Shown here in pieces: positions 18,228 to 58,266 of a DNA stretch of 64,000 nt (position 1 is the stretch's first letter; each line of letters opens with the position of its first letter). The DNA lies in the NCBI GenBank assembly GCA_965279375.1, contig OZ257156.1, forward strand, positions 3,296,001 through 3,360,000, written 5' to 3'. The DNA comes from Gemmatimonas sp. (GTDB taxonomy: Bacteria; Gemmatimonadota; Gemmatimonadetes; Gemmatimonadales; Gemmatimonadaceae). The notes beneath the pieces were generated by a model, which saw only the letters and a program-made list of their open reading frames with translations, had not been told where the DNA came from and ran no database searches. Made by a program: the position numbers and the translations under genes.

Positions 18228-18929
18228 ATGCGGCGTCTGCGTTCCGTCTTCCCGATCGTTCTCGCCGCTACGGCCATGCTGGCCGCTGCGCCGTTCACGC
18301 CCCGCGCCGCCGTCACAGGTCCCGGACGCTTGGCGATCGCCCGCCTGCAGTACGAGGGCGGTGGTGACTGGTACGCCAATCCTTCCAGCATTCCCAATCT
18401 CCTCGCGGCCATCGCCGAGCGCACCGCGCTCCCGGTCGAACGCACCGAGGCCAAGGTCAAGCTCACCGATTCAGCGCTCTTCGACTTTCCGTTCCTGCAC
18501 GTCACGGGACACGGGCAGATCAAATTGAGCGATGTCGAAGTGGTACGTCTGCGCGAGTATCTCACGCGCGGCGGCTTTCTCCACGTGGACGACAACTACG
18601 GACTCGACGAAAGCTTCCGTCGCGAGATCAAACGGGTCTTCCCCGACCGCCCGCTCGTCGAAGTGCCCTCCAAGCATCCGATCTACCACCTGGTCTACGA
18701 CTTCCCCGACGGGCTGCCCAAAGTGCACGAGCACGACGGGAAACCCGCGCAGGGCTTTGGCATCTTCATCGGTGGCCGACTTGCCGTCTACTACACGTAC
18801 TCCGCCGACCTCGGCAACGGTTGGGAAGACGTGGGTACGTATCCTGATCCTCCCGCGCTCCACGAGCAGGCGATCCGCATGGGTGTGAATCTCTTCACGT
18901 ACGCGGCCACGAGCCGGGTGCAGCCGTGA
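18228..18929 (+). CDS. DUF4159-domain exported protein
   Basis: IARLQYEGGGDWY, FPFLHVTGHG, LREYLTRGGFLHVDDNYG, DLGNGWED and GVNLFTYA motifs; signal peptide. Confidence 0.85.
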   Translation: MRRLRSVFPIVLAATAMLAAAPFTPRAAVTGPGRLAIARLQYEGGGDWYANPSSIPNLLAAIAERTALPVERTEAKVKLTDSALFDFPFLHVTGHGQIKLSDVEVVRLREYLTRGGFLHVDDNYGLDESFRREIKRVFPDRPLVEVPSKHPIYHLVYDFPDGLPKVHEHDGKPAQGFGIFIGGRLAVYYTYSADLGNGWEDVGTYPDPPALHEQAIRMGVNLFTYAATSRVQP

Positions 18930-22711: not shown

Positions 22712-24707
22712 CGCCGCGACACGGCTGCACAGCATCGGCTCACGTAGCGCATCGGTTAGCGCATCGGTTAGCGCATCGCGATTCGCATCGCGTTTCGCAT
22801 CGCGTATTGCCTCGCGAAGCGCATGGCGCTGGGTGACGCTCTGCGCGGCGCTGCTGCTCGGCGCGGTGGGCGACGCCGAGAGTGCGTTCGCCCAGGCGCG
22901 CCCGGGTAGCACGGGCGCAGCCAACGCGCCGGCCACGGCGACCGCGACCAAGGCCGATACGGTCGATCCGCTGGGGATCGCGCTCGACGCCGAAGAAAAA
23001 GGTGAGCTCAAGCGGGCAGCGGCTGCGTATCGCGAAGTGCTGTTCCGAGCGTTGCAACCCGGCGCCGGCGACGGCGATCGCGTGGACATGTCGCTGTTGG
23101 GTCTCGAGCGCGTGTGGACCGAAACGGGCGCGCGCGACTCGATTTTGCTTGTCGCGCAGCGCGTGGTGTTGCTGCGTCCCGCCGATCCGGTGGCACGCGG
23201 CATTCAGCTCCGCTCCCTCGTGGGGATGGGGCGCGACGACGAAGCGCGGTCGGCGTTCGCGTCGTGGCGTCGCGCGGCCGGCAACGATGGCGCACCCTTT
23301 CGCGAGTATTCGCGGTTGCTCCTCGCCGCCGGTCGTGCACAGGCCGCCGACTCGGTGCTCAACGAAGCGAGTCGATTGCTTGGCGCGGCCGGTATGCTTG
23401 CCGGTGAAGTCGCGCAGTTGCACGTCGCGCTCGGCCGCTGGAGTGCGGCGGCTGCGGCGTTTCGCGAGTCGCTGAGCAGTCAGCCGTATCTCGAGACAGC
23501 GGCGACGTATGCGCTGCAGCGCGCGCCCAGTACCGTGCGTGATTCGATTCGCACCGTGTTGATCGCCGATCCGGTGGAGCTGTTGCCGCGGCGCTTGTTG
23601 TCGTCGCTGGAGCTGACGTGGGGAGAGCCGCGTCGCGGCTGGACGGCATTGTCCCCGGTGCGCGCTGACGACTCGACAACCGCGGCGTGGCGAAGCTTTG
23701 GTGAACGCGTGGAGTACGCGCAGGCCTGGCCCGTGGCGCGTGACGCGTGGGTGGCAGTGTTCGATCGCGCAGGCGACCTCGAAGCGCAGCAGCATGCCGC
23801 ACAGGCCGCGCTCAATGCGGGGGATGCAGCGGGCGCACTGGCGTTGGTGGCACGAACCGGCAAGCCAGTGGCGACGGCGCGACCGACTAAGCCCGGCGAG
23901 TCGGCCAAGGATGCTGCGGCACGCGAAGCGACGCTGCGCGTGCGCTCGCTACTGCCGATCGAGATTGCGGCACTGGGTGAGCTGGGGCGTGCGAAAGACG
24001 CACAGGCACGGCTCGAAGCCAACGCGGCGCAGCTCGACGATGCCGCACGTGATGCGATGGCGCGCCCGCTCGTGGCCGCGTGGTTGCGCGCCGGTGATCT
24101 GGAACGGGCGCGTGCCGCCGCCAAGGCGACCGACCTTAGTGAGGACGACGAGACCGAAGGCTGGCTTGCACTCTACGACGGCGATCTGGTGACCGCGCGC
24201 AAACGGCTGGTGCGCGCGGATACCAAACGGGGCGAATTGGTGGATGCGTTGGGGCTGCTCGCGCGTACGCGCGCGACGCAGTCCGCCGGCCTGGGACAGG
24301 CGTTTCTCGCGCTCGCGCAGCGCGATAGTGCGACCGCCGCTGCGCGCTTTGTCGCACTCGCCGATTCTCTGTCCGATGCTGCTCCGGCGTTGCTGTCGTT
24401 GGCGTCGCGTATCGAGGCGCGATTGGCGGTACGCAGCGCAGGCAAGGCGCCCACGCCTGCGGCGGTGCCCGCGAAGGCGATGGCATTGTGGGATCGCATC
24501 GTGAAGCAGCATCCCAAGTCCCCCGAGGCGCCGGAGGCGTTGCTCGCCAGTGCGCGCGCGTTACGCGACGCGGGCCAGACGCCGGCTGCGATTCAACGCT
24601 TCGAAACGCTGCTCGTCGATTATCCTGAGAGTGCGCTACTGCCGCAGGCGCGTCGCGACCTAGAACGTCTGCGCGGGAACATCCCGCCGGAGCTGACTGC
24701 CAGATGA
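22692..24707 (+). CDS. Exported TPR-repeat protein (C-terminal CpoB/BamD-like TPR motif); start uncertain
   Basis: Signal-peptide-like segment (VTLCAALLLG...AFAQ); Ala-rich helical repeats; C-terminal HPKSPEAPEAL...FETLLVDYPESALLPQARR. Confidence 0.7.
   Translation: MARRPSSAATRLHSIGSRSASVSASVSASRFASRFASRIASRSAWRWVTLCAALLLGAVGDAESAFAQARPGSTGAANAPATATATKADTVDPLGIALDAEEKGELKRAAAAYREVLFRALQPGAGDGDRVDMSLLGLERVWTETGARDSILLVAQRVVLLRPADPVARGIQLRSLVGMGRDDEARSAFASWRRAAGNDGAPFREYSRLLLAAGRAQAADSVLNEASRLLGAAGMLAGEVAQLHVALGRWSAAAAAFRESLSSQPYLETAATYALQRAPSTVRDSIRTVLIADPVELLPRRLLSSLELTWGEPRRGWTALSPVRADDSTTAAWRSFGERVEYAQAWPVARDAWVAVFDRAGDLEAQQHAAQAALNAGDAAGALALVARTGKPVATARPTKPGESAKDAAAREATLRVRSLLPIEIAALGELGRAKDAQARLEANAAQLDDAARDAMARPLVAAWLRAGDLERARAAAKATDLSEDDETEGWLALYDGDLVTARKRLVRADTKRGELVDALGLLARTRATQSAGLGQAFLALAQRDSATAAARFVALADSLSDAAPALLSLASRIEARLAVRSAGKAPTPAAVPAKAMALWDRIVKQHPKSPEAPEALLASARALRDAGQTPAAIQRFETLLVDYPESALLPQARRDLERLRGNIPPELTAR
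22749..22832 (+). repeat. Degenerate 12-bp tandem repeat, 7 units
   Basis: GCATCGGTTAGC x2, GCATCGCGATTC, GCATCGCGTTTC, GCATCGCGTATT, GCCTCGCGAAGC and GCATGGCGCTGG at an exact 12-nt period. Confidence 0.85.
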
Positions 24708-24757: not shown

Positions 24758-26017
24758 ATGCGTACGCTGAGCGCGCTGCTGGCGACACTGCTGCTTGCGG
24801 CGCTGCCGCTGCGCGCGCAGAACATGCTCATCCCGATGGACGATGGGCAGCGCAACCATCTCAAGGCCTACGGCGTGGCGTTTCAAGCGCTCAAGACCGG
24901 ACAGAAGGCGGAGTGGCTGCTCAACTATCGTGGTGGCGCCTTCCTCTTGCCGGATGTGCCCGATCTGCGTCGCCGCGCCGCGCTCGATGGCGTGACCATC
25001 GAGGCGATGAGCGACGGTGCGCTGGTCGCCGCGCGCGCCGAAATCGCCGGCGGTAACATGGATGCCGTGGTGCTCGAGCGCGCACCGCGCATCGCGATCT
25101 ATCGCCCCGTGAACCAGCCGCCCTGGGACGACGCCGTCACGCTCGCGCTCACGTATGCCGGCATCGATTTCACGTCGGTGTGGGACGATGACGTCATGAA
25201 GGGCGACCTGTCCAAGTACGACTGGGTGCATCTGCACCACGAAGACTTCACGGGACAGTTCAACAAGCTCTTTCTCGCCTATCGCGATGCGCCGTGGTTC
25301 ATCGCGCAGCGCGATCGTGATCTGGCGATGGCCCGGAAGTTCGGCCTTGCCGATGTTCCCGCGCTCAAGAAGGCGGTGGCCGACAACATTCGTGGTTTCG
25401 TCGATCGCGGCGGTTTCCTCTTCGCCATGTGCGGCGCCACCGAGTCGCTCGATCTGGCCATCGCCGCCTTCGCGGTCGATATCGCCGGCCCGTTCTCCGA
25501 TGGCACGCCGCCCGCACCTGACGCCGACGCACGTCTCAACTGGATGCGCACGCTCGCATTTTCCGGCGCGCACATCGAGCCGTCGCCGTACATCAACGCC
25601 TTGAGCGATATCGACGGGCATCAGGTCAACGTGCCCGCGCGTCGTCAGCCGCTCGGCGTCTTCACGTTGTTCGACTTCTCGGCCAAGCTCGATCCGGTTG
25701 CGGCGATGCTCGTGCAGAACCATCGGAGCATCATCCCCGACTTCTACGGCGTCACCACCAGCTTCAATCGTGCGATCATCAAGCCGACGGTGACGGTGCT
25801 CGCCTCCGAAGACGGCGCGCCGTGGAGCAAATACCTGCACGGCGACTACGGGAAGGGCTCCTGGACCTTCCTTGGCGGCCATGATCCGGAAGATCCGCAG
25901 CATGCCATTGGCAGTCCGCCGACGGACCTGTCGCTGCGTCCGAATTCGCCGGGTTATCGCCTGATCCTCAACAACGTGCTCTTCCCCGCCGCGAAGAAGA
26001 AGCCGCGGAAGACGTGA
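24758..26017 (+). CDS. Exported class I glutamine-amidotransferase-like protein (family often auto-annotated as asparagine synthetase B)
   Basis: Signal peptide (LLLAALPLRA-Q); NHLKAYG, WLLNYRGGAF, PWDDAVTLALTYA, WVHLHHEDFTGQ, GGFLFAMCGAT (nucleophile-elbow Cys), GGHDPED and SPGYRLILNN motifs. Alternative start 24704. Confidence 0.7.
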   Translation: MRTLSALLATLLLAALPLRAQNMLIPMDDGQRNHLKAYGVAFQALKTGQKAEWLLNYRGGAFLLPDVPDLRRRAALDGVTIEAMSDGALVAARAEIAGGNMDAVVLERAPRIAIYRPVNQPPWDDAVTLALTYAGIDFTSVWDDDVMKGDLSKYDWVHLHHEDFTGQFNKLFLAYRDAPWFIAQRDRDLAMARKFGLADVPALKKAVADNIRGFVDRGGFLFAMCGATESLDLAIAAFAVDIAGPFSDGTPPAPDADARLNWMRTLAFSGAHIEPSPYINALSDIDGHQVNVPARRQPLGVFTLFDFSAKLDPVAAMLVQNHRSIIPDFYGVTTSFNRAIIKPTVTVLASEDGAPWSKYLHGDYGKGSWTFLGGHDPEDPQHAIGSPPTDLSLRPNSPGYRLILNNVLFPAAKKKPRKT

Positions 26018-29357: not shown

Positions 29358-30398
29358 ATGGCCGTGCTCCCTCCCCCCTCCGACGATACGTCGGCCTCCG
29401 GGCCAACGGACGAGACTCGTACCAGCGAGCCTCGCTCGGGCCGTCGGAAACGGGGCGCGGTCAGCGATCGGGCGCGATTGGGTGGGGCCAATGGCCGCGA
29501 GAAGCGTTCGGCCAAGGCGCTCTCGGTATCCATCGGACTGCACGCGATCGCCGCTGTGGTGTTGGTACAGCTGCTCACGTTCGGGCACGGCCTCTCCGGA
29601 TTTCTCGGGCTCGACAAGGAGAAGGACGCTCGCGAGGAGCGAATCACCTTCGTGTCGCCGCGTCAGCCGAAGCCGCCCGAGGTCGCGCCCAAGTCCAAGC
29701 CAGCGGTGGAGCAGCCGACGACGGACCAGCCGCGTCTTCGTCCGCCCACCACGGGACCTGTGCTCGGCACGCCGGCCGACGCACCGTCCGCAGAGCCCGC
29801 ACCGACGCGTGCGGACACGGGAAGTGGCTTGGCCGCCGGAGCGGAGCCCGTTGGCGCGCTCGACCCGAACCTGCGCGGCGTGAAGCCGGGCTACAACGAC
29901 GTGCGGGTCTGGCGCGGCGCCGGTGGCGGCGGAGCTGGAGCGGCACCGGGACGCAACGGCGCCGAGCGCCTCGACAGCATCATCGGGTATGCGATTGGGG
30001 CCGCGGCGGACTCGCTCGACTCACTCGCCCGCGCGCAGGGGCGCACCGGCCGCAAGCCGGGTGACTGGACCAAGACGGGCCCGGACGGCCAGAAGTGGGG
30101 CTGGGACGGCACGGGTATTCGCCTGGGCAAGGTCACCATCCCCAACGCGCTGCTCGGTCTGTTGCCGCTCAACGCGCAGAGGGGGATGTCGGGCAACTTC
30201 ACCGAGATTCAGCGCGACAAGCGTCTCGCCCTAGCCCGCGAGGACATCATGCGCAACGCCGACCGCGCGCTTGGTGAAGCGGAGTTCCGCAAGCTGGTGG
30301 GCGAACTGCGCGACCGTCGGGAACGCGAACGCCGAGATCGCCTTCGCGCGCCGGACGCCTCGATCGCGCCCGCCAAACCCAACGGTCGCAACGACTGA
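29358..30398 (+). CDS. Hypothetical single-pass membrane protein with Pro-rich linker (TonB-like N-terminal layout)
   Basis: SVSIGLHAIAAVVL anchor (S-x3-H pattern), Pro/Thr-rich and Gly-rich segments, C-terminal globular/coiled region; followed by a terminator. Confidence 0.6.
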   Translation: MAVLPPPSDDTSASGPTDETRTSEPRSGRRKRGAVSDRARLGGANGREKRSAKALSVSIGLHAIAAVVLVQLLTFGHGLSGFLGLDKEKDAREERITFVSPRQPKPPEVAPKSKPAVEQPTTDQPRLRPPTTGPVLGTPADAPSAEPAPTRADTGSGLAAGAEPVGALDPNLRGVKPGYNDVRVWRGAGGGGAGAAPGRNGAERLDSIIGYAIGAAADSLDSLARAQGRTGRKPGDWTKTGPDGQKWGWDGTGIRLGKVTIPNALLGLLPLNAQRGMSGNFTEIQRDKRLALAREDIMRNADRALGEAEFRKLVGELRDRRERERRDRLRAPDASIAPAKPNGRND

Positions 30399-32458: not shown

Positions 32459-33490
32459 ATGCTGTGCGCGGCGTTCGGCGCTGGCGGCACGTTGCACGCG
32501 CAGGGTGCGAGTGCGTCGCCGCGCGTGACGTCGCAGCCCACCGGCACCACGGCTTCGCTGTTCGGCATCTTCCCCGTGTCCGAGCAGGTCGTGTGGGCGA
32601 GCGGCAGCAAGGGGGTGGTGCTGCATACTCGCGATGGCGGCACCACATGGGAACGGAAGGCGATGCCCGGTGGCGATTCGCTGCAATTCCGCGACATTCA
32701 CGCACGAGGCGCCGACACCGCGTGGGCGCTCTCGATCGGCAACGGCGCCGCGTCGCGCATCTACTTCACCGCCGACGGTGGCAGCACGTGGCGCGAGCAG
32801 TTCCGCAATGCGGATAGCGCGGCCTTCTACGATTGCATCACGATGCTCGACGCCAAGGTGGGGATCGTGTTCGGCGACGCGGCGCATGGACAGACGCAGA
32901 TTCTGCGCACGACCGATGGCGGCAGCCACTGGGCGCTGTTGCCCGCGACCCAGGTGCCGACGCCGCTCGAGGGCGAAGGGGCGTATGCGGCGAGTGGCCG
33001 CTGCGTCGTAAGCGCAGGCCCCAAGCACGTCTTCATTGCCACCGGCGGACCGGGCTCGCGCCTGTTCACCAGCGATGACGCTGGCGTGCATTGGACCGTG
33101 CGCGCGACACCGTTCGTGCACACCAAGTCGGCGGGCACGAGTGGGCTCGACTTCCGCGATCCCAACAACGGCATCGGCGTGGCCGGCGACATGACCAACT
33201 TGCGCAGCGACACGGCGAGTGCGGTGGTGGCGGTGACGACCAATGGCGGCAAGTCATGGGAGCTTCGCACGCGACCGCCGCTTGCGGGATCGCTCACGGG
33301 CGCGGTGTGGGTGACGGGCGCCGGTAAGGAGACAGCCATTGCCTTGGGCTTTGGCGGCGCGTTCAGCACGCGCGATGGCGGCCGCACGTGGACGGTGTTG
33401 AGCGACAAGGGACACACCGGCATCGGCAGCTTCGGCAAGACGGCGTGGCTCGGCGGCACCAACGGAACCATTCTTCGGGTGGACTACTGA
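32459..33490 (+). CDS. Exported BNR/Asp-box beta-propeller (Ycf48-like) protein
   Basis: Repeated T-x-D-G-G-x-T/S-W Asp-boxes (TRDGGTTW, TADGGSTW, TTDGGSHW, SDDAGVHW, TTNGGKSW, TRDGGRTW); signal peptide. Start uncertain. Confidence 0.85.
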   Translation: MLCAAFGAGGTLHAQGASASPRVTSQPTGTTASLFGIFPVSEQVVWASGSKGVVLHTRDGGTTWERKAMPGGDSLQFRDIHARGADTAWALSIGNGAASRIYFTADGGSTWREQFRNADSAAFYDCITMLDAKVGIVFGDAAHGQTQILRTTDGGSHWALLPATQVPTPLEGEGAYAASGRCVVSAGPKHVFIATGGPGSRLFTSDDAGVHWTVRATPFVHTKSAGTSGLDFRDPNNGIGVAGDMTNLRSDTASAVVAVTTNGGKSWELRTRPPLAGSLTGAVWVTGAGKETAIALGFGGAFSTRDGGRTWTVLSDKGHTGIGSFGKTAWLGGTNGTILRVDY

Positions 33491-35142: not shown

Positions 35143-37506
35143 CTACTTCTTGGGCTCGACGCCCGGCGGTGCGCCACCGGGCTGTCCGGGCGGCACGAGC
35201 AGTTGCTGCACGGAGGTATCGCCGCCGGGCATGGCCGGTGAGGTCTGCCGGTCGAAGCCGAACACCTTCTCGCGACGCATCGCCTTGGCCACGGCACGCG
35301 AGCTCTGGAAGACTGCCTCGGACTCACGCAGACGACCGGTTGCCGCAAGTGCTTCGGCCAGCGTGATGCCGCTGATCACGTACAGGTCGGGAATGCCGAC
35401 CGACGCATCGTCCACCCAGCCGTCGCGCTTGGCGAGCGACTTGTTGGCGGTGAAGACGTCGTTCCAGAGCGCGAGCGAACGCTTCACATCCACCAGCCCT
35501 TCGCCCTGAATCAGCACCGTGTCCTTGCTGGGGAGGAGCTGATGATCGGACAACTTCTTGGCCATGCCCTGCGTGACGATGTAGCGCTCGAGACCGAGCT
35601 CGTACGGATAGCCACCTGCGGTGCGGCTGAAGTAGATCGGACGCTTGGGGAAAGCATCGCGGATCATGAAGTACACCAGCTGGTCGGCGCGCATCAGCTG
35701 CTGCAGGCGCGGCGTGGCGGTGATGCCGCCGCTCTGGAACGCCATGTTCTGCGGGATCGCGATCGCGAGCGGAATCGCGTCCGCTTCCTCGAAGTTCATC
35801 TTGACCGGCGAACCTTCCGGCTTGGGCCACTGCTGATTGCGATAGATCGCGGGCCCCTTGGCCGCGTCGTACTCGAACACCGGGCGACGAATGAGCTGAC
35901 GCGTGTACCAGTCGGTGTTGAGCAACGACGTGTTGGCCACGACGACGTCCTTGCGAATGCCTTCGACTTCCTGCGCATACCACAGCGGGAAGGTGTCGTT
36001 GTCGCCGACGGTGATCAGGATGCCGTACGGTTCGACCGAGTTGAGCAGATCGCGGGCGAAGTCCGTCGTATCGGTCTGGTTGGAGCGCGACGCCTGCGTC
36101 CAGTTGCCGAAGAGCGGGATGAATGCCACGGCGAGCAGCGGCGTGGCCAGCAGGAAGCTGCGCTGGCGCGGTTCGCTGATCGTTTCGCGGCCAAGCTTCA
36201 CTTCATCCGAACCAAACAGGCTGGCAACGGTCTCCCACAAGTACACGAGTCCGAGCGCGGCCCAGACGCTGAGCGCCGAGAAGCTCCACAGGTAGAAGTA
36301 GTCTCGGTCACGCACTTCGCGGTTCACCGAGTCGCCAAGCTCCGGCGACTGCGAATGCCCGTACTTGAAATTGAGGTAGTAGATCAGCCCCAGTGTCATG
36401 GTGAACACCAGCGGCCCGAAGAACCAGAAACTTCGTCTGTCCTTGCGGTAGTGCATCCACCCGCCGATGCCCACCAGGATGAAGAAGAACACCGCGAGTC
36501 CGTTCTGCAGCCCGGGACGCTCGCCGTACGCATCGCGCAGCCACTGCCACTTCCAGTAGAGCCACCACATCCCCATCTGCGCCGTGAGGGGCGCCTGACG
36601 CTCGCCCAGCTCCGGCTTGCCGTACTGACCGCGATTGAAGTTGTACATGAAGCGGTCGTACGTCAGCGCCGAGAAAGTGCAGCTGGCCTTGAGTTCCATG
36701 GCGCAGCCGGTCGGCTCGCCTTCGTTCATGGCGGGGAAGTGCGCCGCGCGAATGGGCTGCGTGGCAAAGGGCGTGATGCCGAACGCGAGCGCTGCAGCGC
36801 ACGCCAGCAACAGCTTCCAGCGCAGCACGGTCCTAGGGCTGCGCACCAGCACTGCAAAGCCCACCGCAGGCGCCGCGAGCATGCCGGCCATGTGGTTCGC
36901 GTAGCCCAATCCCAACAAGTACGCCACGAGCACCAGCAGACGGTCTGCGCCCGGCTCTTCCGGGTCGTCGCACCAGCGCACGGTGAGCCAGCAGACGATA
37001 GCCAGACCGAGTAGCGAGACCGTGTACACCTTCTCGTTCACCACCGACTGATTCCACACCGTGAACGCCGTCGCGCCGATCAATGCCGCCAGCGATCCGC
37101 CGGCGATGCGCTGCCAACGACGCGGCAACCACGACACCAGCACGCGTTCGGTCACGAGGAACCAGAAGGCCGCGGACACCGCGCTCGAAACGGCCGCCAG
37201 CACGTTGATCCGCATCGCTACCGTGGGCGCGATCGGCAGGATCGAGAAGACGCGCCCGATCAGTACGAAAAACGGGTTGCCGGGCGGATGCGGAATGCCC
37301 AGCACGTAGGCCGCGGTGATGTACTCGCTCGTGTCCCACATGGACGTCGTCGGCGCGAGCGTGATGATGTACAACAGGAAGACCACCAGCCCCGCGATGG
37401 TGGCGGCGAGGTACGACGGTCGGTAGTCGAGTTCGGCCACACCAGCTTTGGAGCTGGTCGTGGACCCAACGGCGGCAGTCGCGGATGCGGTGGCGGCGAC
37501 GGTCAT
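35143..37506 (-). CDS. DUF2723 (TMEM260-like, GT-C fold) integral membrane glycosyltransferase
   Basis: TLAPTTSMWDTSEY...GIPHPPGNPFF, EKVY, REVRDRDYFY and GDNDTFPLWYAQEVEG motifs; about 11-13 TM helices plus a soluble C-terminal domain; start ATG 37506. Confidence 0.85.
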   Translation of the reverse strand: MTVAATASATAAVGSTTSSKAGVAELDYRPSYLAATIAGLVVFLLYIITLAPTTSMWDTSEYITAAYVLGIPHPPGNPFFVLIGRVFSILPIAPTVAMRINVLAAVSSAVSAAFWFLVTERVLVSWLPRRWQRIAGGSLAALIGATAFTVWNQSVVNEKVYTVSLLGLAIVCWLTVRWCDDPEEPGADRLLVLVAYLLGLGYANHMAGMLAAPAVGFAVLVRSPRTVLRWKLLLACAAALAFGITPFATQPIRAAHFPAMNEGEPTGCAMELKASCTFSALTYDRFMYNFNRGQYGKPELGERQAPLTAQMGMWWLYWKWQWLRDAYGERPGLQNGLAVFFFILVGIGGWMHYRKDRRSFWFFGPLVFTMTLGLIYYLNFKYGHSQSPELGDSVNREVRDRDYFYLWSFSALSVWAALGLVYLWETVASLFGSDEVKLGRETISEPRQRSFLLATPLLAVAFIPLFGNWTQASRSNQTDTTDFARDLLNSVEPYGILITVGDNDTFPLWYAQEVEGIRKDVVVANTSLLNTDWYTRQLIRRPVFEYDAAKGPAIYRNQQWPKPEGSPVKMNFEEADAIPLAIAIPQNMAFQSGGITATPRLQQLMRADQLVYFMIRDAFPKRPIYFSRTAGGYPYELGLERYIVTQGMAKKLSDHQLLPSKDTVLIQGEGLVDVKRSLALWNDVFTANKSLAKRDGWVDDASVGIPDLYVISGITLAEALAATGRLRESEAVFQSSRAVAKAMRREKVFGFDRQTSPAMPGGDTSVQQLLVPPGQPGGAPPGVEPKK

Positions 37507-37618: not shown

Positions 37619-40267
<2,649 letters not shown>

Positions 40268-40274
40268 GGCGAGC

Positions 40275-40832
40275 TCAGTCGGCTGTCAGCGCGCGCTGCA
40301 GGAATGCGCGCGCGATGACCCAGTCTCGTTTGACGGTCCGTTCGGACACGCCGAGCACCTGGGCCGTCTGTTCGACGGACAGACCGCCGAAGTAGCGGAG
40401 CTCGACGACCTTGGCTTGGCGCGCATCGAGTGCCGCGAGTTGCTCGAGTGCGGCGTCCACCTCGAGCAGCTGCTCCGATTCCTGTGCCGCGGCGTCCATG
40501 CCATCGCGCAGTCGCACGACGTTGTCACCACCGCGCTTTTCGGCGCGACCACGACGCGCATGGTCCACGAGAATACGCCGCATCACCGTGGCCGCGATGG
40601 CGTAGAAGTGCCCGCGGTTCTCGAAGGTCGCATCGCGCTGATCGATCAGCCGCAGGTAGGCTTCGTGCACCAGCGCTGTGGGCTGCAGCGTGTGGCCCTC
40701 CGCTTCGTGCTGCAGCGAACGCGCGGCCATGCGGCGCAGCTCGTCGTAGACCAGCGGCAGCACCGCGTCGTACGCGCCGGGCTGTCCGAGCTGGACGCGC
40801 TGCAGCAGCGCGGTGATGGAGGAGGCGGGCAC
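40275..40832 (-). CDS. ECF sigma factor, kinase-associated (ECF43/TIGR02999-like)
   Basis: ITALL...LPLVYDELRRMA, HTLQPTALVHEAYLRL, MRRILVDHAR and VVELRYFGGLS...SERTVKRDW motifs; probable GTG start at 40832. Confidence 0.9.
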   Translation of the reverse strand: MPASSITALLQRVQLGQPGAYDAVLPLVYDELRRMAARSLQHEAEGHTLQPTALVHEAYLRLIDQRDATFENRGHFYAIAATVMRRILVDHARRGRAEKRGGDNVVRLRDGMDAAAQESEQLLEVDAALEQLAALDARQAKVVELRYFGGLSVEQTAQVLGVSERTVKRDWVIARAFLQRALTAD

Positions 40833-40957
40833 CTGGCAACGATCCGGATGGGGTCGCCGGAGCGTACGCGTTGGGCGGGGGCGGAGCAAGAAGGCCTGCA
40901 TGCTTACTCCGCGTGATCCCCGCCCAAACCGGGCCATCCGAACGACGAACGTGCCGA

Positions 40958-42490
40958 CTAGTGCCGGAAGAGGCGCTCGCCCGTAAAGATCATCGCGATG
41001 CCATGTTCGTCGGCCGCGGCGATCACTTCCGCGTCACGCACCGAGCCACCGGGCTGCACGATCGCCGTCACGCCTGCTGCGGCCGCTTGATCGATGCCGT
41101 CACGGAACGGGAAGAAGGCGTCGGAGCCAAGCGCGGAACCGGCGGTCGCGTGTCCGGCGCTCTGCGCCTTGTGGGCCGCCAGGAACGACGAGTCCACGCG
41201 CGACATCTGCCCTGCGCCGATGCCGATGGTCGCGCCGTCGCGCACGAGCACGATGGCGTTGGACTTCACGCTCGCGACCGAGCGCCACGCGAAGGCGAGA
41301 TCGCGCTGCTCCTGCTCGGTGGGCTGGCGCTTGGTGACGGTTTCCCAGCGCGCCGGATCGGTCGCGGTGGGCGCACGATCCTGCACCAGCAGCCCGCCAC
41401 GCACCCGTTTGAAGTCCATGCCGCCGGCGGGCCACTGCGCGCTGCCGGCCAGCACGCGCAGGTTCTTCTTCTTGCCGAGAATGTCCACCGCTTCGTCGGC
41501 GAAGGAGGGCGCCACGATGCACTCGACAAACAGGCTGGAGATCGCTTCGGCGGTGGCCGCATCCACCGGCACCGAGAACGCGATCACGGAGCCGAACGCC
41601 GACACTGGATCGCAGGCGAGCGCCTTCTGGTAGGCGTTGAGCGCATCCGTGCCTGTGGCGAGGCCGCACGGCGTGGTGTGCTTGATGATCGCACAGGCCG
41701 GCTGCGCACCGAACGGCTCGATGGCGAGCATGGCGCCTTCGAGATCGAGGAAGTTGTTGAACGAGAGCTCCTTGCCGCCCAGCTGCTTGAGCGCGCCCAG
41801 TCCCGTTCCCGTCTTCTCCACGTAGAACGCGGCGCGCTGCTGCGGGTTTTCGCCGTAACGGAGCGACTGCTGCTTCTCGAAGGTGAGCGGATAGCGATCG
41901 GGGAAGGGCTCGTTGCGCTGCGCGGCAAACCACTGCGCGATGGCGGCGTCGTAGCCGCTGGTGTGCGCATAAACCTTCTCGGCCAACAGGCGACGCATCG
42001 ACTGGTCGTCGCTGCCCGCAGCGATGATCTCGAGCACCGGCGCATAGTCGGCCGGGTCCACGATGACCCACACCGCCGCGAAGTTCTTTGCCGCTGAGCG
42101 CAGCATGGACGGGCCGCCGATATCGATGTTCTCGATGACTTCTTCCGGGTGCACGCCTGGCTTGGCCGCCGTCTCGCGGAACGGGTACAGGTTCACGACG
42201 ACGAGGTCGATCGTGCCGATGTTGTGCGCCTTGATCGCGTCCATGTGTTCCGGCAGATCGCGTCGGGCGAGCAGGCCGCCGTGCACCACCGGGTGCAACG
42301 TCTTCACGCGGCCGTCGAGCATCTCCGGGAATCCGGTGATGTCGCTGACGTCGAGCACCGTGAGCCCGCTCTCACGCAACGTGCGTGCGGTGCCGCCCGT
42401 GGACACGAGTTCAAAGCCGAGCTGCGCGAGACGTGTGGCGAAAGGAACCAGTCCGCTCTTGTCGGACACGGAAAGCAGGGCGCGAGGCAT
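40958..42490 (-). CDS. purH: Bifunctional AICAR transformylase/IMP cyclohydrolase
   Basis: [55 protein letters not shown] and SDAFFPF motifs. Confidence 0.97.
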
Positions 42491-42505
42491 TGCGATGAGG
42501 GGCGA

Positions 42506-43273
42506 TCAGCGAGGAAAGAGACGTGCGACGTCGGAAGCGATCGTCGCCGGGTCGGACAAACTTGGCGCTTCGGGCCGTGGATCGGCCGTCAGGGAAAAGC
42601 GCAGCTCGGGGAAATCGGGCGGAAACGAGATGCCGAATTCGCCGTGCGTGCGGCCATCGTCACCAAGCTCGACGCCGCCGCAGGCTATTGCCGCGACGCA
42701 GAGCGGATAGAGCCGATGCTCCACGCGCAGCACGCGCGCCGCGAGCACCGAGGGCGTGTCGCCGGGGAGCACGGGTACCGGCCACTGCGCCACGATCGCG
42801 CCGCGGTCGAACTCTTCATCCACGAAGTGCACCGTCACGCCCGAGAGCGTAGCGCCCGACTCGAGCACGGCGGCGTGCACGCGCTGGCCGTACATGCCGG
42901 CGCCACCAAACGCCGGCAGCAATGACGGATGCACGTTGAGCATGCGACCGTGGAAGGCACGCACCACGGGAGCGGGTACGAGCTTGAGGTAGCCGGCCAG
43001 GACCAGCAGATCCACGCGCGCGACGGTCAGCGCATCGAGAATGGCGTCTGCGTCAGCCGGGTCTTCGATGACGGCCGTGGGGATCCCGGCGGCGCGCGCA
43101 CGCTCCAACGCGCCGGCATCCGCAGCGTTGGAGGCCACCCATACGATCTCGCCCGCCTGCGACGCACTCGACGCGAAGTGATCGATGAGCGCCTGCAGGT
43201 TGGTGCCACCGCCGGAGACGAGCACGCCGATGCGTGAGACACCAACGCGTGCGACTGTTGCGGAGCCGTTCAT
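42506..43273 (-). CDS. purN: Phosphoribosylglycinamide formyltransferase
   Basis: VLVSGGGTNLQA, LAGYLK, NVHPSLLPAFGG, GVTVHFVDEEFDRG and EHRLY motifs. Confidence 0.95.
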   Translation of the reverse strand: MNGSATVARVGVSRIGVLVSGGGTNLQALIDHFASSASQAGEIVWVASNAADAGALERARAAGIPTAVIEDPADADAILDALTVARVDLLVLAGYLKLVPAPVVRAFHGRMLNVHPSLLPAFGGAGMYGQRVHAAVLESGATLSGVTVHFVDEEFDRGAIVAQWPVPVLPGDTPSVLAARVLRVEHRLYPLCVAAIACGGVELGDDGRTHGEFGISFPPDFPELRFSLTADPRPEAPSLSDPATIASDVARLFPR

Positions 43274-43851
43274 GTGCGTTCCACGAAAAAGGCAGCGATG
43301 TCGTCCAACGCGATGGTGACGGCGTCGAGCACCGACTCGGCAATGCGTATGCGCGGCGAGAGCTGTTCGCGCGTGGCCTCCAGATCGGCCTCAGGCGTTT
43401 CCGCGCCGGGCACCAGCACGCCCAAGCCACCGGTGCTCAGGGCAGGCTGCACGTCACGCCAGCGATCGCCGATGTACGCGGAGCGGGCGAGATCGATGTC
43501 GAATCGTGCGGCGGCCTGCTGATACATACCCAGCTTGGGTTTGCGACAGTCGCAGTCGCCGCCGTGCTCCGCGTGATGCGGACAATGATACGTCGCGTCC
43601 ACCTGCGCTCCGTCGCGCGCGAGCAGCGCGTTGGTGCGGTCGCGCACCGCCTCGTACTGCGCGGTGGTGATCATGCCGCGCGCAATGCCCGACTGATTCG
43701 TCACGACGATCGCGAGCACGCCGGCGGCGTTGACGCGCGACACGGCCGCTGCCGCGCCGCGCAGCAGGCGCACCTGCGCAGGATCAGCGAGGTAGTGCGC
43801 GTCCGCGATGAGCGTGCCATCGCGATCGAGGAAGATGGCCGGACGCGTCAC
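43270..43851 (-). CDS. gmhB: HAD IIIA phosphatase, D-glycero-D-manno-heptose 1,7-bisphosphate phosphatase-like
   Basis: FLDRDGT, VTNQSGIARG, CPHH...CDCRKP and IGDRWRD motifs. Confidence 0.8.
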   Translation of the reverse strand: MTRPAIFLDRDGTLIADAHYLADPAQVRLLRGAAAAVSRVNAAGVLAIVVTNQSGIARGMITTAQYEAVRDRTNALLARDGAQVDATYHCPHHAEHGGDCDCRKPKLGMYQQAAARFDIDLARSAYIGDRWRDVQPALSTGGLGVLVPGAETPEADLEATREQLSPRIRIAESVLDAVTIALDDIAAFFVERT

Positions 43852-45197
43852 GCGGGCGGCTTGCGGGGCGCCGCCGTCGCGCTGTCCTTCTTCACGGTCG
43901 TGCTGTCCTTCTTCACCGGCGCCTTGGGCGTCGTGAGCGTGCGCGCAGGCGAGCGCACGGTGCCCGAGAGGCTCCGAATGGACTGCACCTGCACACGAAA
44001 GATGGACGCGGCAGGCAACGGCTCGGCGAGCGTCACGTACAACTCCGCGTACACCGGATCGCGACGCATCTTGGGCGGCGGTGTGGTGTCGCGCGGCGGC
44101 AACGGCTTGTTGCCGCGGAGAATCGCGAGGCGCCGAGCTTCACGGTCTGCGCGCTCCACCAGAACGAGGCTGTCGAGGCGACGCTTGCGGGCCACCGAGT
44201 CGGCGCGCGCGCGGGCGGCCGCGCTGGTGTCCACCTTCACCGTTTTCGCAATGGAGTCGGCCGTCGCTTTTCGCGCCAGCGAGTCGTAGAGCATTCGGAT
44301 CGGAACGGTTTCGATCTTGACCACACGCAACTCGGTGGAGTCGGACTTCTTGATCGTCACACGGCTCCGGTCGAACACCTGCTCGGGCGAGTACGGCTTG
44401 TCCAACGTCAGCTTGATCACGCGGCCGCTGTCCTGCACGGCCATTTCCGAGATCCGGATCCCGACGGTGTCGTGCGGGAACGTGTACAACTCGGCGTTCG
44501 CGCTCGCCGTGATGGTGCGGCGCGTCGTGTCCCATGATTCGGACGGATCGAGCTCGCGATTGGAATTGCGGTCGCCGTACGCGCGGATGGTGTAATCGCC
44601 CGGCGGCATGTAGCGCAGGTCGTATCGGCCCACGCTGTCGGTCAGCACCTGATAGACGGTGCTGTCGTATCCGATCGCTTCGACCAGCGCCTTGGGCGAC
44701 GGCTTGCCCGCCACCCAGTCGAACACCACGCCGGTGATGCTGGTCTTCGGGATCTCGCCGCCGGTGCTGAACACGAGTCGGATCGTGCTGTCGATGCCGT
44801 TATTCCGCAGATCCGAGATGCCGGGGCTCACCGTGATCGAATAGACGGTGTTCGGCTTCCATCCCTTCTTCGGACTGATGGAGATCTTCGTGCGTCCCCA
44901 GTCCACGCTTGGCTTGCCCGCCTTCGGACTGATGAAGACGAGCTGGTCGAGCGTGGGTGCCCCGCGCGGGGTTTCGCTGATGACTTCATTGAACTGAATG
45001 ACGACGGACTTGGGCTTCGCGCCAACCGCGCCGTTGCCGGGCGAGATCTTGGTGACCCAGGGCGCGTCGAGGTCGGGTGGACCGCCTTCCGGCGCAGTCA
45101 CGTTGGCGCACGCGGCCGCGATGCTGGCGGTGATCGTGGCCGCCAGCACCCACAGCCCAACCGCGCGTACCCGCCGCGACCGAGATCCGTCGCTCAT
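43848..45197 (-). CDS. Lipoprotein with Big_5 (SbsA-like) Ig domain and carboxypeptidase-regulatory-like domain
   Basis: IAAAC lipobox followed by A-x4-P-x-G-G-P-x-D; FNE, W-x-P-N-T-x-Y, DLRNN and FSTG motifs; ATGA overlap with the valS stop. Confidence 0.8.
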   Translation of the reverse strand: MSDGSRSRRVRAVGLWVLAATITASIAAACANVTAPEGGPPDLDAPWVTKISPGNGAVGAKPKSVVIQFNEVISETPRGAPTLDQLVFISPKAGKPSVDWGRTKISISPKKGWKPNTVYSITVSPGISDLRNNGIDSTIRLVFSTGGEIPKTSITGVVFDWVAGKPSPKALVEAIGYDSTVYQVLTDSVGRYDLRYMPPGDYTIRAYGDRNSNRELDPSESWDTTRRTITASANAELYTFPHDTVGIRISEMAVQDSGRVIKLTLDKPYSPEQVFDRSRVTIKKSDSTELRVVKIETVPIRMLYDSLARKATADSIAKTVKVDTSAAARARADSVARKRRLDSLVLVERADREARRLAILRGNKPLPPRDTTPPPKMRRDPVYAELYVTLAEPLPAASIFRVQVQSIRSLSGTVRSPARTLTTPKAPVKKDSTTVKKDSATAAPRKPPA

Positions 45198-54920: not shown

Positions 54921-56608
54921 GCGCCGCGCTCGACCGCTTCCTCGAGCACTATTTTCGCCGCCGTCCGGTGAACGCGACGTTCACCGGCGTGCACGAGTAT
55001 GACGATGCGTTGCCGGACTGGAGTGAGTCGGGGCTCTGGTCGCTCGACGCGGAGATGCATGCGCTCCGCGCGGAATTGGTCGCCGCGTATCCTCACGTAG
55101 CGACAGCCAGCGCGCAGGCACTGGCCGAGGATGTCGATCTGCTCGATGCGCGGTTGGCGATCGCGTTTCTGGACGTGCAGCTCGCGGAGAATGCCAGTCG
55201 GCATGGGCCTCGAGGGAATCCCGCGCTCTGGAGTGGCGAGGCGGTCTTCTCCGTCGTGTCGCTGGTGATTCGCGATTTCGCGCCGGCGGTGCAGCGCGCG
55301 AACGCCATCGTGGCTCGCCTGCAGGCGATCCCGGGCTTCTTCACCAACGCGACGCGTGTACTGGAGCACGCGCCCATTCCGGCGGCGTCGGCAGACAAGG
55401 CGCAGCGCGACTGCACGGGCGCGGCGATTCTGCTCAAGCACGGTCTCGAGACGTGGCTGGCGGAGCAAGAGGGCGTGGTGTTGGCCGACGTCGCGTTGTC
55501 GATGCGCGCGCACGCGGATGCCGCGCTCGTTGCGTTCGAGCAGTTTGCGCAGTGGCTGCGCGCGCGGCCTGAGGCACCGGACGCCGGTATGTCTTGCGGC
55601 GCGGAGCTGTACGATCTGCTGCTGTCGCAGGGACACCAGTGCGAACGGTCGCGTGCAGAGCTGCTGGCCGACGCTCGAACGGCGATAACCTCGGCCAAGG
55701 CGCGACTACATGCGTTCGCGCAGGCGACCGCCGGCTCATGGGACAAAGCGCAGGCGCTTATGGCGGCCGATCACGCGGCGCCTGAAGGGTATCTCGATGC
55801 GTTTGCGCGCACGTGGGCACGCTGCCGCGAGCATGCGCTCCGCTACGATGTGGTGACCTGGCCCGAGTGGCCGCTTCGGTATGTGACGTTTCCCGCTGCG
55901 ACGCGCGATGCTGCGCCGTACCTGTACTACCTCTACTATCGTTCTCCGGCGCCGTTCGACCCGTATACGACGTACGAGTATGTCGTACCTCCGCTGCCTA
56001 CCGCCCCTGACGCAGTGGAGCGCCATCTGCGCGTGTGGAATGCGAGTGCGGTGACGCTGAATCACGTGGTGCATCATGGTGCGATCGGGCACCACGTGCA
56101 GAACTGGCACGCATATCATCAGGCCACGTCGCGCATCGGACGCATCGCCGCCGTTGATTGCGCCAATCGCGTCGGCATGTTTTGCGCTGGCACGATGGCC
56201 GAAGGGTGGGCGTGCTATGCGACCGAGTTGATGGAGGAGCTCGATTTCCTCTCGCCGCTGGAACGCTTGTCCGAACAACATTCGCGCATTCGCTTCCTCG
56301 CGCGCGCGATCGCGGACATCGAACTGCATCAGGGATCGATGAGCGTTGACGAAGTCATTCGCTTCTACGTGGACGAAGTGGGGATGTCACCTGAGGTAGC
56401 GCGCGCGGAGACGATCAAGAACGCGATGTTCCCGTGCACGGCCGTCATGTACTGGCTGGGTACGCAGGGCATTCTCGATCTGCGGAAGACGCTCCAGCGC
56501 ACGCAGGGTGCGCAGTTCAATCTCAAACGGTTTCACGACACGCTGCTCGGCTATGGTTCCATCCCGGTGCCGCTCGTGTCGCGACTCATGACGGCGGAGT
56601 CCGAATGA
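54917..56608 (+). CDS. DUF885 family protein, cytoplasmic, variant metal motif
   Basis: No signal peptide; PVNATFTGVHEYD, HHGAIGHHVQ, EGWACYA, YWLG and FNLKRFHDTLLGYG motifs; GTGA coupling. Confidence 0.8.
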   Translation: MSAALDRFLEHYFRRRPVNATFTGVHEYDDALPDWSESGLWSLDAEMHALRAELVAAYPHVATASAQALAEDVDLLDARLAIAFLDVQLAENASRHGPRGNPALWSGEAVFSVVSLVIRDFAPAVQRANAIVARLQAIPGFFTNATRVLEHAPIPAASADKAQRDCTGAAILLKHGLETWLAEQEGVVLADVALSMRAHADAALVAFEQFAQWLRARPEAPDAGMSCGAELYDLLLSQGHQCERSRAELLADARTAITSAKARLHAFAQATAGSWDKAQALMAADHAAPEGYLDAFARTWARCREHALRYDVVTWPEWPLRYVTFPAATRDAAPYLYYLYYRSPAPFDPYTTYEYVVPPLPTAPDAVERHLRVWNASAVTLNHVVHHGAIGHHVQNWHAYHQATSRIGRIAAVDCANRVGMFCAGTMAEGWACYATELMEELDFLSPLERLSEQHSRIRFLARAIADIELHQGSMSVDEVIRFYVDEVGMSPEVARAETIKNAMFPCTAVMYWLGTQGILDLRKTLQRTQGAQFNLKRFHDTLLGYGSIPVPLVSRLMTAESE

Positions 56609-58266
56609 TGCGATGGAAGAGTGTGCGCCGTGGAGCGGCGTCGGCGGCGGGTGCTGCGGCATTGGCGCTCGTGGCAGCGTGTGGCAAGTCGGAGTCGTCG
56701 GCGAGCACGCCCGCGGCCGCCGCTGCTTCCGGTGCATCCAACGAGCTGCTGATCGTCGGCTACGATCGCGAGCCCGACACGATGAATCGCTACGCCACGC
56801 ACATTCTCGAAGACATTCAGACGTGCGTGATCGAAGGGCTCGTCACCAGCGACGAGCACATGCAGGTGGTGCCCGTGCTCGCCACTGAGATTCCCACGGT
56901 GGCCAACGGCGGCGTGAAGATGCGCGCCGACGGTGGGATGGATGTGACGTGGAAGCTGCGCCCTGGAGTGAAGTGGCACGATGGCGTACCGCATACTTCG
57001 GCCGACGTGAAGTTCACCGTCGATGCCATGATCAAGGGCGACTGGAAGCCGGAGAGCACAGACGGCTTCGATCGCATTTCGTCGGTGGATACCCCCGATT
57101 CGTTGACGGCGGTCGTGCATTACAAGGAAGTGTATGCGCCGTATCAGATGCAGTTCGCGCGCGGCACGCTCCCCAAGCATGTGCTGCAAGGACGCGATAT
57201 CGACAAGGCGGGCGACTACAATCGCAATCCGCTGGGCACTGGCCCGTATCGCGTGGTCGAGTGGAAGACCGGCGAGCACGTCCTGCTCGAGAAAGTGAAG
57301 GACTACTGGCGAGGCCCCGAGTTCCCGAAGATCAATCGCATTCTATTCCGTTTTGTCACCAACACCAACACGCGCATCAACCAGCTCAAGAGCGGGGAAG
57401 TGCACATGGTCGCGTTGGTGGCGTGGGATAAGGTGCGCGAGCTCAAGGACATGCCGTCGATCCGCTTGAATCGCGTGATCGGCAACGGCTACGAGCACGT
57501 CTCGCTCAACGAGAAGCACTTCCCAGCCTTCGCCGATGTGCGCGTACGCCGCGCGCTCGCTCACGCCATCGATCGCGAGCAGATCACGGAGAAGATGCTC
57601 GACGGACTGGTGTCGGTGGTGAACGGGCCCATTCAGCCCCTCTCCTGGGCCTACGAGTCGAATGTGCAGAAGTACGAGTTCCGGCCCGCGTACGCGCGCG
57701 CTTTGCTCGACTCGGCGGGGTGGGTCGTCGGCGCTGACGGCGTGCGCGCCAAGGATGGCAAGCCGCTGGCCTTCACGCTGATCACGCAGGCGGGGTTCAC
57801 TATTCGTGAGAACGTCGCGCAGGTGCTGCAGAAGCAGTTCAAGGACGTCGGCGTGAACGCGACCATCAAGCTCATCGACGGGACGTCGATCAGTAGTGTC
57901 TGGTTCGCCGGCGACTTCGACGCGATGCTGCATTGGTGGCAGTCGGGGGCCGATCCCGAGATCACGCTGTTCTTCGCCTCCGATCGCACGCCGCCCGCTG
58001 GACGGAACATCAACAACTTCGCCGACGACTCGCTGACGAAGCTGTTGTATGCATCCGATCGCACCGCCGATCAGGCAAAGCGTGGCGCGCTGCTCAAGCT
58101 GGCGCAGAAGCGCGTGGCGGAGTTGGTACCGGAGCTCGTGCTGTACAACACGGCCAAGTTCGACGCGATCCCGATGGCGATGCTCAACTTCAAGGGCAAT
58201 CCCACCAATGCCGGACCCTTTTGGAACGTGCATGAGTGGTACTTCGCGGGGCCGAAAGCGCAGTGA
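56605..58266 (+). CDS. Peptide/nickel ABC transporter substrate-binding lipoprotein (family 5)
   Basis: LVAAC lipobox; PVLATEIP, LRPGVKWHDGVPHTSADVKFT, PLGTGPY and DVRVRRALAHAIDR motifs. Confidence 0.92.
   Translation: MMRWKSVRRGAASAAGAAALALVAACGKSESSASTPAAAAASGASNELLIVGYDREPDTMNRYATHILEDIQTCVIEGLVTSDEHMQVVPVLATEIPTVANGGVKMRADGGMDVTWKLRPGVKWHDGVPHTSADVKFTVDAMIKGDWKPESTDGFDRISSVDTPDSLTAVVHYKEVYAPYQMQFARGTLPKHVLQGRDIDKAGDYNRNPLGTGPYRVVEWKTGEHVLLEKVKDYWRGPEFPKINRILFRFVTNTNTRINQLKSGEVHMVALVAWDKVRELKDMPSIRLNRVIGNGYEHVSLNEKHFPAFADVRVRRALAHAIDREQITEKMLDGLVSVVNGPIQPLSWAYESNVQKYEFRPAYARALLDSAGWVVGADGVRAKDGKPLAFTLITQAGFTIRENVAQVLQKQFKDVGVNATIKLIDGTSISSVWFAGDFDAMLHWWQSGADPEITLFFASDRTPPAGRNINNFADDSLTKLLYASDRTADQAKRGALLKLAQKRVAELVPELVLYNTAKFDAIPMAMLNFKGNPTNAGPFWNVHEWYFAGPKAQ

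Follow-up and report, generated by a model that had tools for sequence, protein, structure and literature searches.

Does the general protein O-glycosylation described in Bacteroidota also run in other phyla? The question is raised by a lipoprotein gene in a stretch of 64,000 nucleotides from Gemmatimonas sp. (contig OZ257156.1, positions 3,296,001 to 3,360,000; called the window here), of which an earlier note had claimed that the exported proteins are loaded with the Bacteroidota acceptor motif D-(S/T)-(A/I/L/V/M/T), termed the strict motif below. We found that motif enrichment is limited to sequence that is predicted to pass through the inner membrane, and that D-S-hydrophobic is under selection only in the exported sequence of this genome. 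Based on these motifs, we consider it likely that a general O-glycosylation of the Bacteroidota type, with a glycan that we infer, runs at the motif in this Gemmatimonas-like bacterium. Most likely, a known glycosylation system is thereby extended to a new phylum.

The Big_5 lipoprotein and its motifs

The lipoprotein (P0001, 449 aa; 43848..45197, minus strand, as are all its parts) begins with a signal peptide whose lipobox ends at Cys30 (45108..45197), a residue shared by all 32 sequences aligned. It continues with a Big_5 Ig-like domain at residues 44-145 (44763..45068; Pfam PF13205, E 2e-14) that holds DST136, and with a second beta-sandwich and linker at residues 153-245 (44463..44741) that hold DST178, DSV187, DTT223 and DTV243, where CarboxypepD_reg (PF13620) matches at 153-208 with E 2e-8. 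A helical hairpin is predicted by AlphaFold2 at residues 298-360 (44118..44306) within a third beta-sandwich, with DSL305, DSI314, DSV333 and DSL342 inside its helices, and the flexible tail (43878..43907; predicted local distance difference test, pLDDT, below 50) carries DST431 and DSA438. The count given in the earlier note was exact: 15 of the 30 Asp residues are followed by Ser or Thr, and 13 of these fit the strict motif (DST four times, DSV, DSL and DTT twice each, DTV, DSI and DSA once each), with two extended motifs, DSG256 and DTS323, in addition. Composition predicts 2.2 strict motifs, none of 100,000 shuffles attained 13, and the protein ranks third for motif enrichment among about 4,040 scored proteins of the genome.

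Named homologues of the lipoprotein belong to Gemmatimonas or Gemmatimonadaceae. Site conservation was scored in the best 120 of 383 homologues (50-73% identity, query counted). These carry a median of 14 motifs (range 10-19), and eight of the 13 strict sites are retained in 113-119 of the 120. By site, DST136 is kept in 108, DST178 in 118, DSV187 in 94, DTT223 in 113 and DTV243 in 119, and on the hairpin DSL305, DSI314 and DSL342 are each kept in 119 and DSV333 in 115. Site 286 has the strict motif in 49 homologues and DSS in a further 68, and the tail sites DST431 and DSA438 have a motif close by in 107 and 71 homologues, respectively, in shifting alignment columns. At kept sites Asp is invariable, while Ser and Thr swap, as do A/I/L/V/T; site 314, for example, reads DSV in 42, DSI in 40, DSA in 17 and DSL in 15. 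The D-T sites of this family are conserved and interchange with D-S, against genome-wide ratios of 1.98 for D-S and 1.04 for D-T (see below); the Bacteroidota system uses both residues, with Ser slightly preferred.

The AlphaFold2 model (mean pLDDT 81.6, predicted TM-score 0.63) shows three beta-sandwich regions and the helical hairpin. Sites 136, 178, 187, 223, 243 and 286 are positioned at turns, and DTS323 lies at the turn between the predicted helices 298-319 and 326-360, just before a helix start. A PDB sequence search with the lipoprotein profile gave no match, and Foldseek with the model returned only generic tandem Ig-like folds with a TM-score of at most 0.21 over the query.

The family defined by lipobox, Big_5 domain and second beta-sandwich is present in 40 of 41 Gemmatimonadota and in all five other genomes of the Fibrobacteres-Chlorobi-Bacteroidetes (FCB) superphylum, usually as a single strong match; no orthologue was found in the four non-FCB genomes searched, which gave one weak non-orthologous match. 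The orthologues carry 11 motifs in Zixibacteria, 11 in Dyadobacter (1.9 expected), 18 in Fibrobacterota, 11 in Lewinella and 5 in Latescibacterota G151 (1.6 expected), the expectation ranging over 1.6-2.5. None of the five orthologues aligned from outside Gemmatimonadota showed the hairpin with its five sites. A Big_5 lipoprotein with seven mapped glycosites is also known from Prevotella intermedia (BWX39_01155), and its site DTA176 falls in the loop of DST178 in a visual comparison that goes through the orthologues of Dyadobacter and Lewinella. On the other hand, that protein measures 77 kDa against 449 aa here, and the orthology is drawn from annotation and one peptide. Considering its motif load, the Big_5 lipoprotein is likely a heavily O-glycosylated substrate and would rank among the most modified of this bacterium, with modification and occupancy predicted for its 13 sites.

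The motif in exported proteins of the genome

For the genome, 4,127 genes were called by a self-trained model and assigned to classes by heuristic signal-peptide and hydropathy rules rather than by Prodigal and SignalP. In a first pass over proteins of at least 100 aa, the strict motif was observed/expected 2458/2391 times in 2,243 cytoplasmic proteins, 1318/928 times in 670 signal-peptide proteins and 514/319 times in 229 lipoproteins, with at least one motif in 652 of the 899 exported proteins. In the strict set, from which cytoplasmic proteins with a hydrophobic stretch near the start were dropped, the enrichment proposed in the earlier note survived the control for composition: the ratio was 1823/1245 = 1.46 in 894 exported proteins (z 16.3 against 30 local shuffles) versus 1474/1605 = 0.92 in 1,585 cytoplasmic proteins.

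The excess resides in D-S-(A/I/L/V/T), at 1151/581 = 1.98x in exported proteins. In the exported classes, A/I/L/V/T after D-S stand at 1.6-2.6x and G/P/D/E/N at 0.3-0.7x, and DSL, DSV, ADS, DSA, RDS and DST make up six of the top seven among 7,803 tripeptides ranked by exported-versus-cytoplasmic excess. When the residue before [ST]-hydrophobic was varied, the ratio was 1.39 and 1.55 for Asp, 0.86 and 0.76 for Glu, and at most 1.15 for the rest except Cys (1.30 in lipoproteins); this agrees with the Bacteroidota system, where Asp is needed at position -1 and Glu is no substitute. The D[ST] dipeptide was rejected as the signal, at 0.94 in signal-peptide proteins and 1.07 in lipoproteins, and the signal sits in the tripeptide. 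A repeated DNA word was rejected as a cause, with normal usage of the Asp and Ser codons in the motifs, and so was a small group of outliers: the enrichment holds without the top 25, 50 or 100 proteins, and after removal of the 100 most enriched the D-S motif still stands at 753/501. Fifty large proteins resembling outer membrane proteins (OMP-like) are not enriched (138/153), and the 849 other exported proteins give 1694/1095.

The contrast can be followed within single proteins, with membrane topology predicted by hydropathy. In 22 Ser/Thr kinases with one transmembrane segment (TM), the motif occurs 18/22.9 times (0.79x) before the TM and 123/34.4 times (3.57x) after it, where E-, N- and G-[ST]-hydrophobic remain at 1.08, 1.12 and 0.99; ten kinases without a TM give 13/15.4. 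Nine sensors with two TMs show 19/6.4 (2.96) in the loop and 10/10.6 (0.94) in the tail. Because this contrast lies across the membrane within the same proteins, composition and codon effects at the level of the gene are removed.

The five proteins with the largest motif excess are an lptC-adjacent lipoprotein (19 motifs), a family-5 solute-binding lipoprotein (14), the Big_5 lipoprotein (13), a membrane kinase (14) and TamB (22). The first is a 572-aa lipoprotein (C1:3762740-3764458, minus strand) with 19 strict motifs next to lptC, which has no Pfam match and a weak LptC-type match and is probably an LptA/OstA-like protein. The second lies at C1:2739909-2741468, and its family-5 paralogue in the window (56605-58266) has 4 motifs against its 14; therefore, motif load varies strongly between paralogues. 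Among the P. intermedia proteins covered by the accessible text of PMC10897501, the most glycosylated are an OstA-like protein with 10 sites, a Big_5 lipoprotein with 7 and a kinase with 7. The two systems thus have in common that an OstA-like or lptC-linked protein, a Big_5 lipoprotein and a kinase are top-ranked, and TamB/DUF490 occurs in both.

The candidate transferase and other genes of the window

About 6 kb from the lipoprotein gene, the window encodes a TMEM260-like GT-C glycosyltransferase of 765 aa (35143..37440, minus strand; DUF2723, PF11028, E 2e-48, 164.8 bits against a cut-off of 24.2). Its sole PDB sequence match is human TMEM260 (GT117, PF11028, PDB 9RQL), a member of the same GT-C family: Asp36, in the first external loop, is aligned to the catalytic Asp52 (9rql_A), and a second segment matches at 441-517. 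In the accessible part of PMC10214176, the human D52A variant is inactive. We consider the TMEM260-like protein the best candidate for the initiating transferase and put its chances at about even.

PF11028 was found in 150 of 151 Gemmatimonadota, 61 of 61 Bacteroidota, 31 of 31 Fibrobacterota and 26 of 26 Latescibacterota, and above cut-off in only 12 of 51 genomes from the phylum of a Deltaproteobacteria record and 18 of 51 from that of a Brevinemataceae record. Among 14 control genomes it occurs in one, B. thetaiotaomicron, and the 80 titled loci of a PF11028 motif scan comprise 59 from Bacteroidota, 7 from Gemmatimonadota and 14 others. In a FastTree phylogeny of 62 proteins, rooted at the midpoint and supported by SH-like values only, which took in 19 of the 59 Bacteroidota loci and left out the strongest Eisenbacteria copy, the window enzyme groups with named Gemmatimonadaceae loci, within a 45-row clade (support 98) of Gemmatimonadota, Fibrobacterota, Zixibacteria, Latescibacterota, Ignavibacteria/Kapabacteria and Bacteroidota subgroups. 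Copies from the delta group and from spirochaetes fall outside this clade, save one Sphaerochaetaceae row among Bacteroidales (L070), which is an 8 kb contig and may represent a misbinned contig or a transfer. The genome holds a second, divergent PF11028 copy (619 aa, C1:3493474-3495333), whose long branch sits inside the Gemmatimonadota group, and many Gemmatimonadota carry two to four copies. Seven viral-collection stretches (L003-L009) also match the PF11028 motif pattern, as candidates only, being either genes or host flanks.

Gene linkage was rejected as proof of an enzyme-substrate pair and is treated as ordinary conserved gene order. In 20 of the 29 genomes from this order, the lipoprotein and enzyme genes share a strand and are separated by 5-12 kb; among the matches listed, five lack an enzyme match and four are unlinked. 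Against a functional linkage, housekeeping genes stand between the two genes in this genome, and the genes lie on different contigs in the genomes of other classes for which both are listed. None of the 120 enzyme loci of the collection scan, 40 of them shorter than 700 bases, held the lipoprotein gene.

A donor could be made in this genome by a DPM-synthase-like GT2 (C1:3755786-3756484), whose best PDB match is dolichol monophosphate mannose synthase (E 4e-29). It belongs to a cluster (C1:3755786-3759938) with a 319-aa GT2, a 372-aa glycosyltransferase-like gene and an LPG_synthase_TM protein (PF03706), a family that we take to include flippases. The cluster lies just downstream of the lptC-rpoN-like run and is a candidate locus for donor synthesis and flipping. 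Once a protein has been exported, a transferase bound to the membrane and facing the periplasm, best represented by the TMEM260-like protein, would attach the first sugar to Ser and less often Thr after Asp. This sugar would probably be mannose, supplied on a polyprenyl-phosphate carrier made with the DPM-synthase-like GT2. An outer glycan, if any, would be built by genes unlike those of the Bacteroides LFG. The glycans may stabilise or hydrate periplasmic proteins or domains, as hypothesised in the accessible text of a 2025 review (PMC12871550).

Other exported proteins of the window were tested singly by 5,000 shuffles each. The earlier note had seen the motif recur in several of them, and its counts were all right, although not all of these lie above chance. 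Motif excess is present in a TPR-like protein (22833..24707, plus strand; 7 strict against 2.1, p 0.003; weak YfiO match only), in a single-pass membrane protein with a tandem DSL-DSL (29358..30398, plus strand; 3 against 0.7, p 0.02) and in a membrane Ser/Thr kinase (37619..40267, minus strand; 9 against 3.4, p 0.007; 6 against 1.8 after the TM). A BNR-repeat protein is borderline (32459..33490, plus strand; 4 against 1.5, p 0.05), and the solute-binding protein (4 against 1.6, p 0.07), cyclophilin (2 against 0.7, p 0.15) and SusC (2 against 2.7, p 0.76) are at chance level. PurH, which had been put forward as a cytoplasmic control of low motif content, contains one D[ST] and no strict motif among 31 Asp. 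What we take, from their motifs, to be purH and purN lie with a gmhB-like phosphatase gene between the lipoprotein and TMEM260-like genes (40958..43851, minus strand), and all three are cytoplasmic controls with no strict motif. Between purH and the TMEM260-like gene, an extracytoplasmic function (ECF) sigma factor is paired with the kinase (37619-40937); the pair looks like an insertion because in loci L030 and L107 the TMEM260-like gene directly follows purH. Downstream of a DUF4159 gene, two exported-looking proteins of 1261 and 419 aa (18926-22711 and 24758-26017) have no Pfam match, and the latter has 37 Asp and no D-S/T.

Comparison genomes and competing explanations

Comparison genomes were run through one simplified pipeline on samples of 200-600 kb, and we give observed/expected motifs of the exported class. 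Sampled in the same way, this genome gives 56/35 and 57/34. Enrichment was also found in another Gemmatimonadota family (38/23), Fibrobacterota (57/36), Zixibacteria (75/43) and 59 pooled Bacteroidota loci (146/114). Non-FCB replicons of matched guanine-cytosine (GC) content (66-69%) are flat, namely Azospirillum plasmid p1 (62/63), G174 (43/47) and G171 (8/15), and therefore high GC content in exported proteins does not by itself produce the signal. PF11028 was not found in G171 and G174, and the Azospirillum genome was not searched for it. Two non-FCB genomes with a PF11028 copy outside the FCB clade are not enriched (G221 24/23, G195 15/15), and PF11028 presence alone was rejected as a predictor. 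Pooled control sets of mixed GC content, in which genes were poorly called (coverage of 0.43 and 0.31), were left unused; they gave 1/3 and 8/4 motifs, each set with 7 proteins.

According to the accessible text of the review (PMC12871550), the glycosylation is unique to Bacteroidota, with only Fibrobacterota named as a second enriched phylum, and the oligosaccharyltransferase (OTase) or initiating transferase is listed as undiscovered. This text contains no mention of Gemmatimonad or TMEM260, while its Fig. 2A spans all GTDB genera and may plot a Gemmatimonadota signal uncommented. Within the literature searched, in which subscription journals were mostly not included, no publication tied Gemmatimonadota to O-glycosylation, or TMEM260/DUF2723 to Bacteroides. 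On the one hand, the present system resembles that of Bacteroidota, where the same text gives a measured third-position preference of L/I/V/T/A/S: the motif is D-(S/T)-(A/I/L/V/T) with an apparent preference for Ser, it is confined to non-cytoplasmic sequence, and the periplasm-facing parts of membrane proteins are enriched. On the other hand, it belongs to another phylum, is known here from a sequence motif, is flat for D-T and D-S-M, has no metG-wzx locus, and shows an enrichment, at 1.46, above that of the Bacteroidota samples (0.79, 1.17 and, pooled, 1.28).

Several observations weigh against the proposed glycosylation or its assigned enzyme. The evidence consists of sequence motifs, from which we infer glycosylation and enzyme activity, the protein classes are heuristic, and three exported proteins of the window are at chance level. 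In the genome as a whole D-T motifs are not enriched (637/614 = 1.04x), and neither is D-S-M. Dyadobacter, itself a member of the Bacteroidota, is not enriched (35/44), the excess in Lewinella (58/50) is not significant, and Latescibacterota G151 is depleted (36/69) despite four PF11028 copies. Accordingly, the genome-wide ratio does not follow the enzyme one to one, and some FCB genomes lack the signal. The cytoplasmic class of Zixibacteria G152 shows as much enrichment as its exported class (122/71), partly from two mis-started surface-type proteins. No GtrA flippase was found in the Gemmatimonas genome, nor a metG-wzx locus: metG (C1:2694829) stands without a flippase or glycosyltransferase run, and two Wzx-like genes lie 147 and 260 kb off. 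In the accessible text of PMC12871550, this LFG outer-glycan locus is not phylum-wide even within Bacteroidota. As a separate observation, the G151 depletion is about twofold in a 420 kb sample (Poisson p about 1e-5), two of the four PF11028 copies have DSA in the tail, and the depletion may reflect avoidance of an active sequon.

Among the alternatives, the one that survives best is compatible with glycosylation and concerns the enzyme: the initiating step could belong to another GT-C protein or an en-bloc O-OTase, with the TMEM260-like protein serving Ig/IPT-like domains or a glycolipid. We regard this as a serious, if less probable, possibility. Human TMEM260 is IPT-specific and acts, according to the accessible part of bioRxiv 10.64898/2026.09.21.753134, on a longer and different motif in IPT domains (P...P...P..GG...T), and the substrate and donor of the bacterial protein are putative. 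Besides the second PF11028 copy, the genome contains ten other GT-C matches (PMT_2) and one Wzy_C match; G151 has the FCB-type enzyme and is nevertheless depleted, and any vertically inherited FCB core gene would share the distribution of PF11028. Against this, B. thetaiotaomicron matches PF11028 and not PMT_2, and the G151 orthologue of the Big_5 lipoprotein still exceeds its expected motif number. Moreover, mannose is the first sugar of the Bacteroidota core, and the review draws attention to eukaryotic O-mannosylation homologues (PMC12871550, accessible text).

Another extracytoplasmic modification of Ser, such as phosphate or a phospho-alcohol, or the relic of an inactive ancestral glycosylation, is in our view unlikely. 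The preponderance of Ser over Thr and the missing Bacteroides-type outer-glycan locus would suit it, but the third-position preference agrees with the glycosylation motif and the catalytic Asp of the enzyme is intact. The enrichment is broad, persisting without the top 100 proteins, and it is strong in the kinase domains that follow the TM, which argues for ongoing selection and against a relic. Least probable, and very much so, is an unmodified structural preference, in which D-S/T-hydrophobic is a helix cap or turn-to-strand element of exported beta-sandwich and repeat proteins: the six sites at turns, DTS323 and the different folds of exported and cytoplasmic proteins would fit it, but the three GC-matched controls, the N-, G- and E-[ST]-hydrophobic motifs and the large OMP-like proteins are all flat, a Big_5-repeat protein of the spirochaete-phylum genome G257 has no D[ST] among 26 Asp, and the near-invariant sites 305, 314, 333 and 342 are inside predicted helices, where they would serve neither as caps nor as turns.

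Beyond this genome, we tentatively propose, with slightly less than even confidence, that D-(S/T) O-glycosylation is ancestral to the FCB superphylum and active in Gemmatimonadota, Fibrobacterota and Zixibacteria, that its first enzyme is the vertically inherited FCB TMEM260-like clade and that the Big_5 lipoprotein is an ancestral multi-site substrate. If so, bacteria would have in this first enzyme the counterpart of an O-mannosyltransferase linked to human disease. Given a clear signal in Gemmatimonadota, the system would date back to the root of the FCB group, and the search for the enzyme would narrow to genes common to these phyla, among which the TMEM260-like family is conspicuous. With its roughly 14 conserved sites, the Big_5 lipoprotein would offer a ready reporter for testing.

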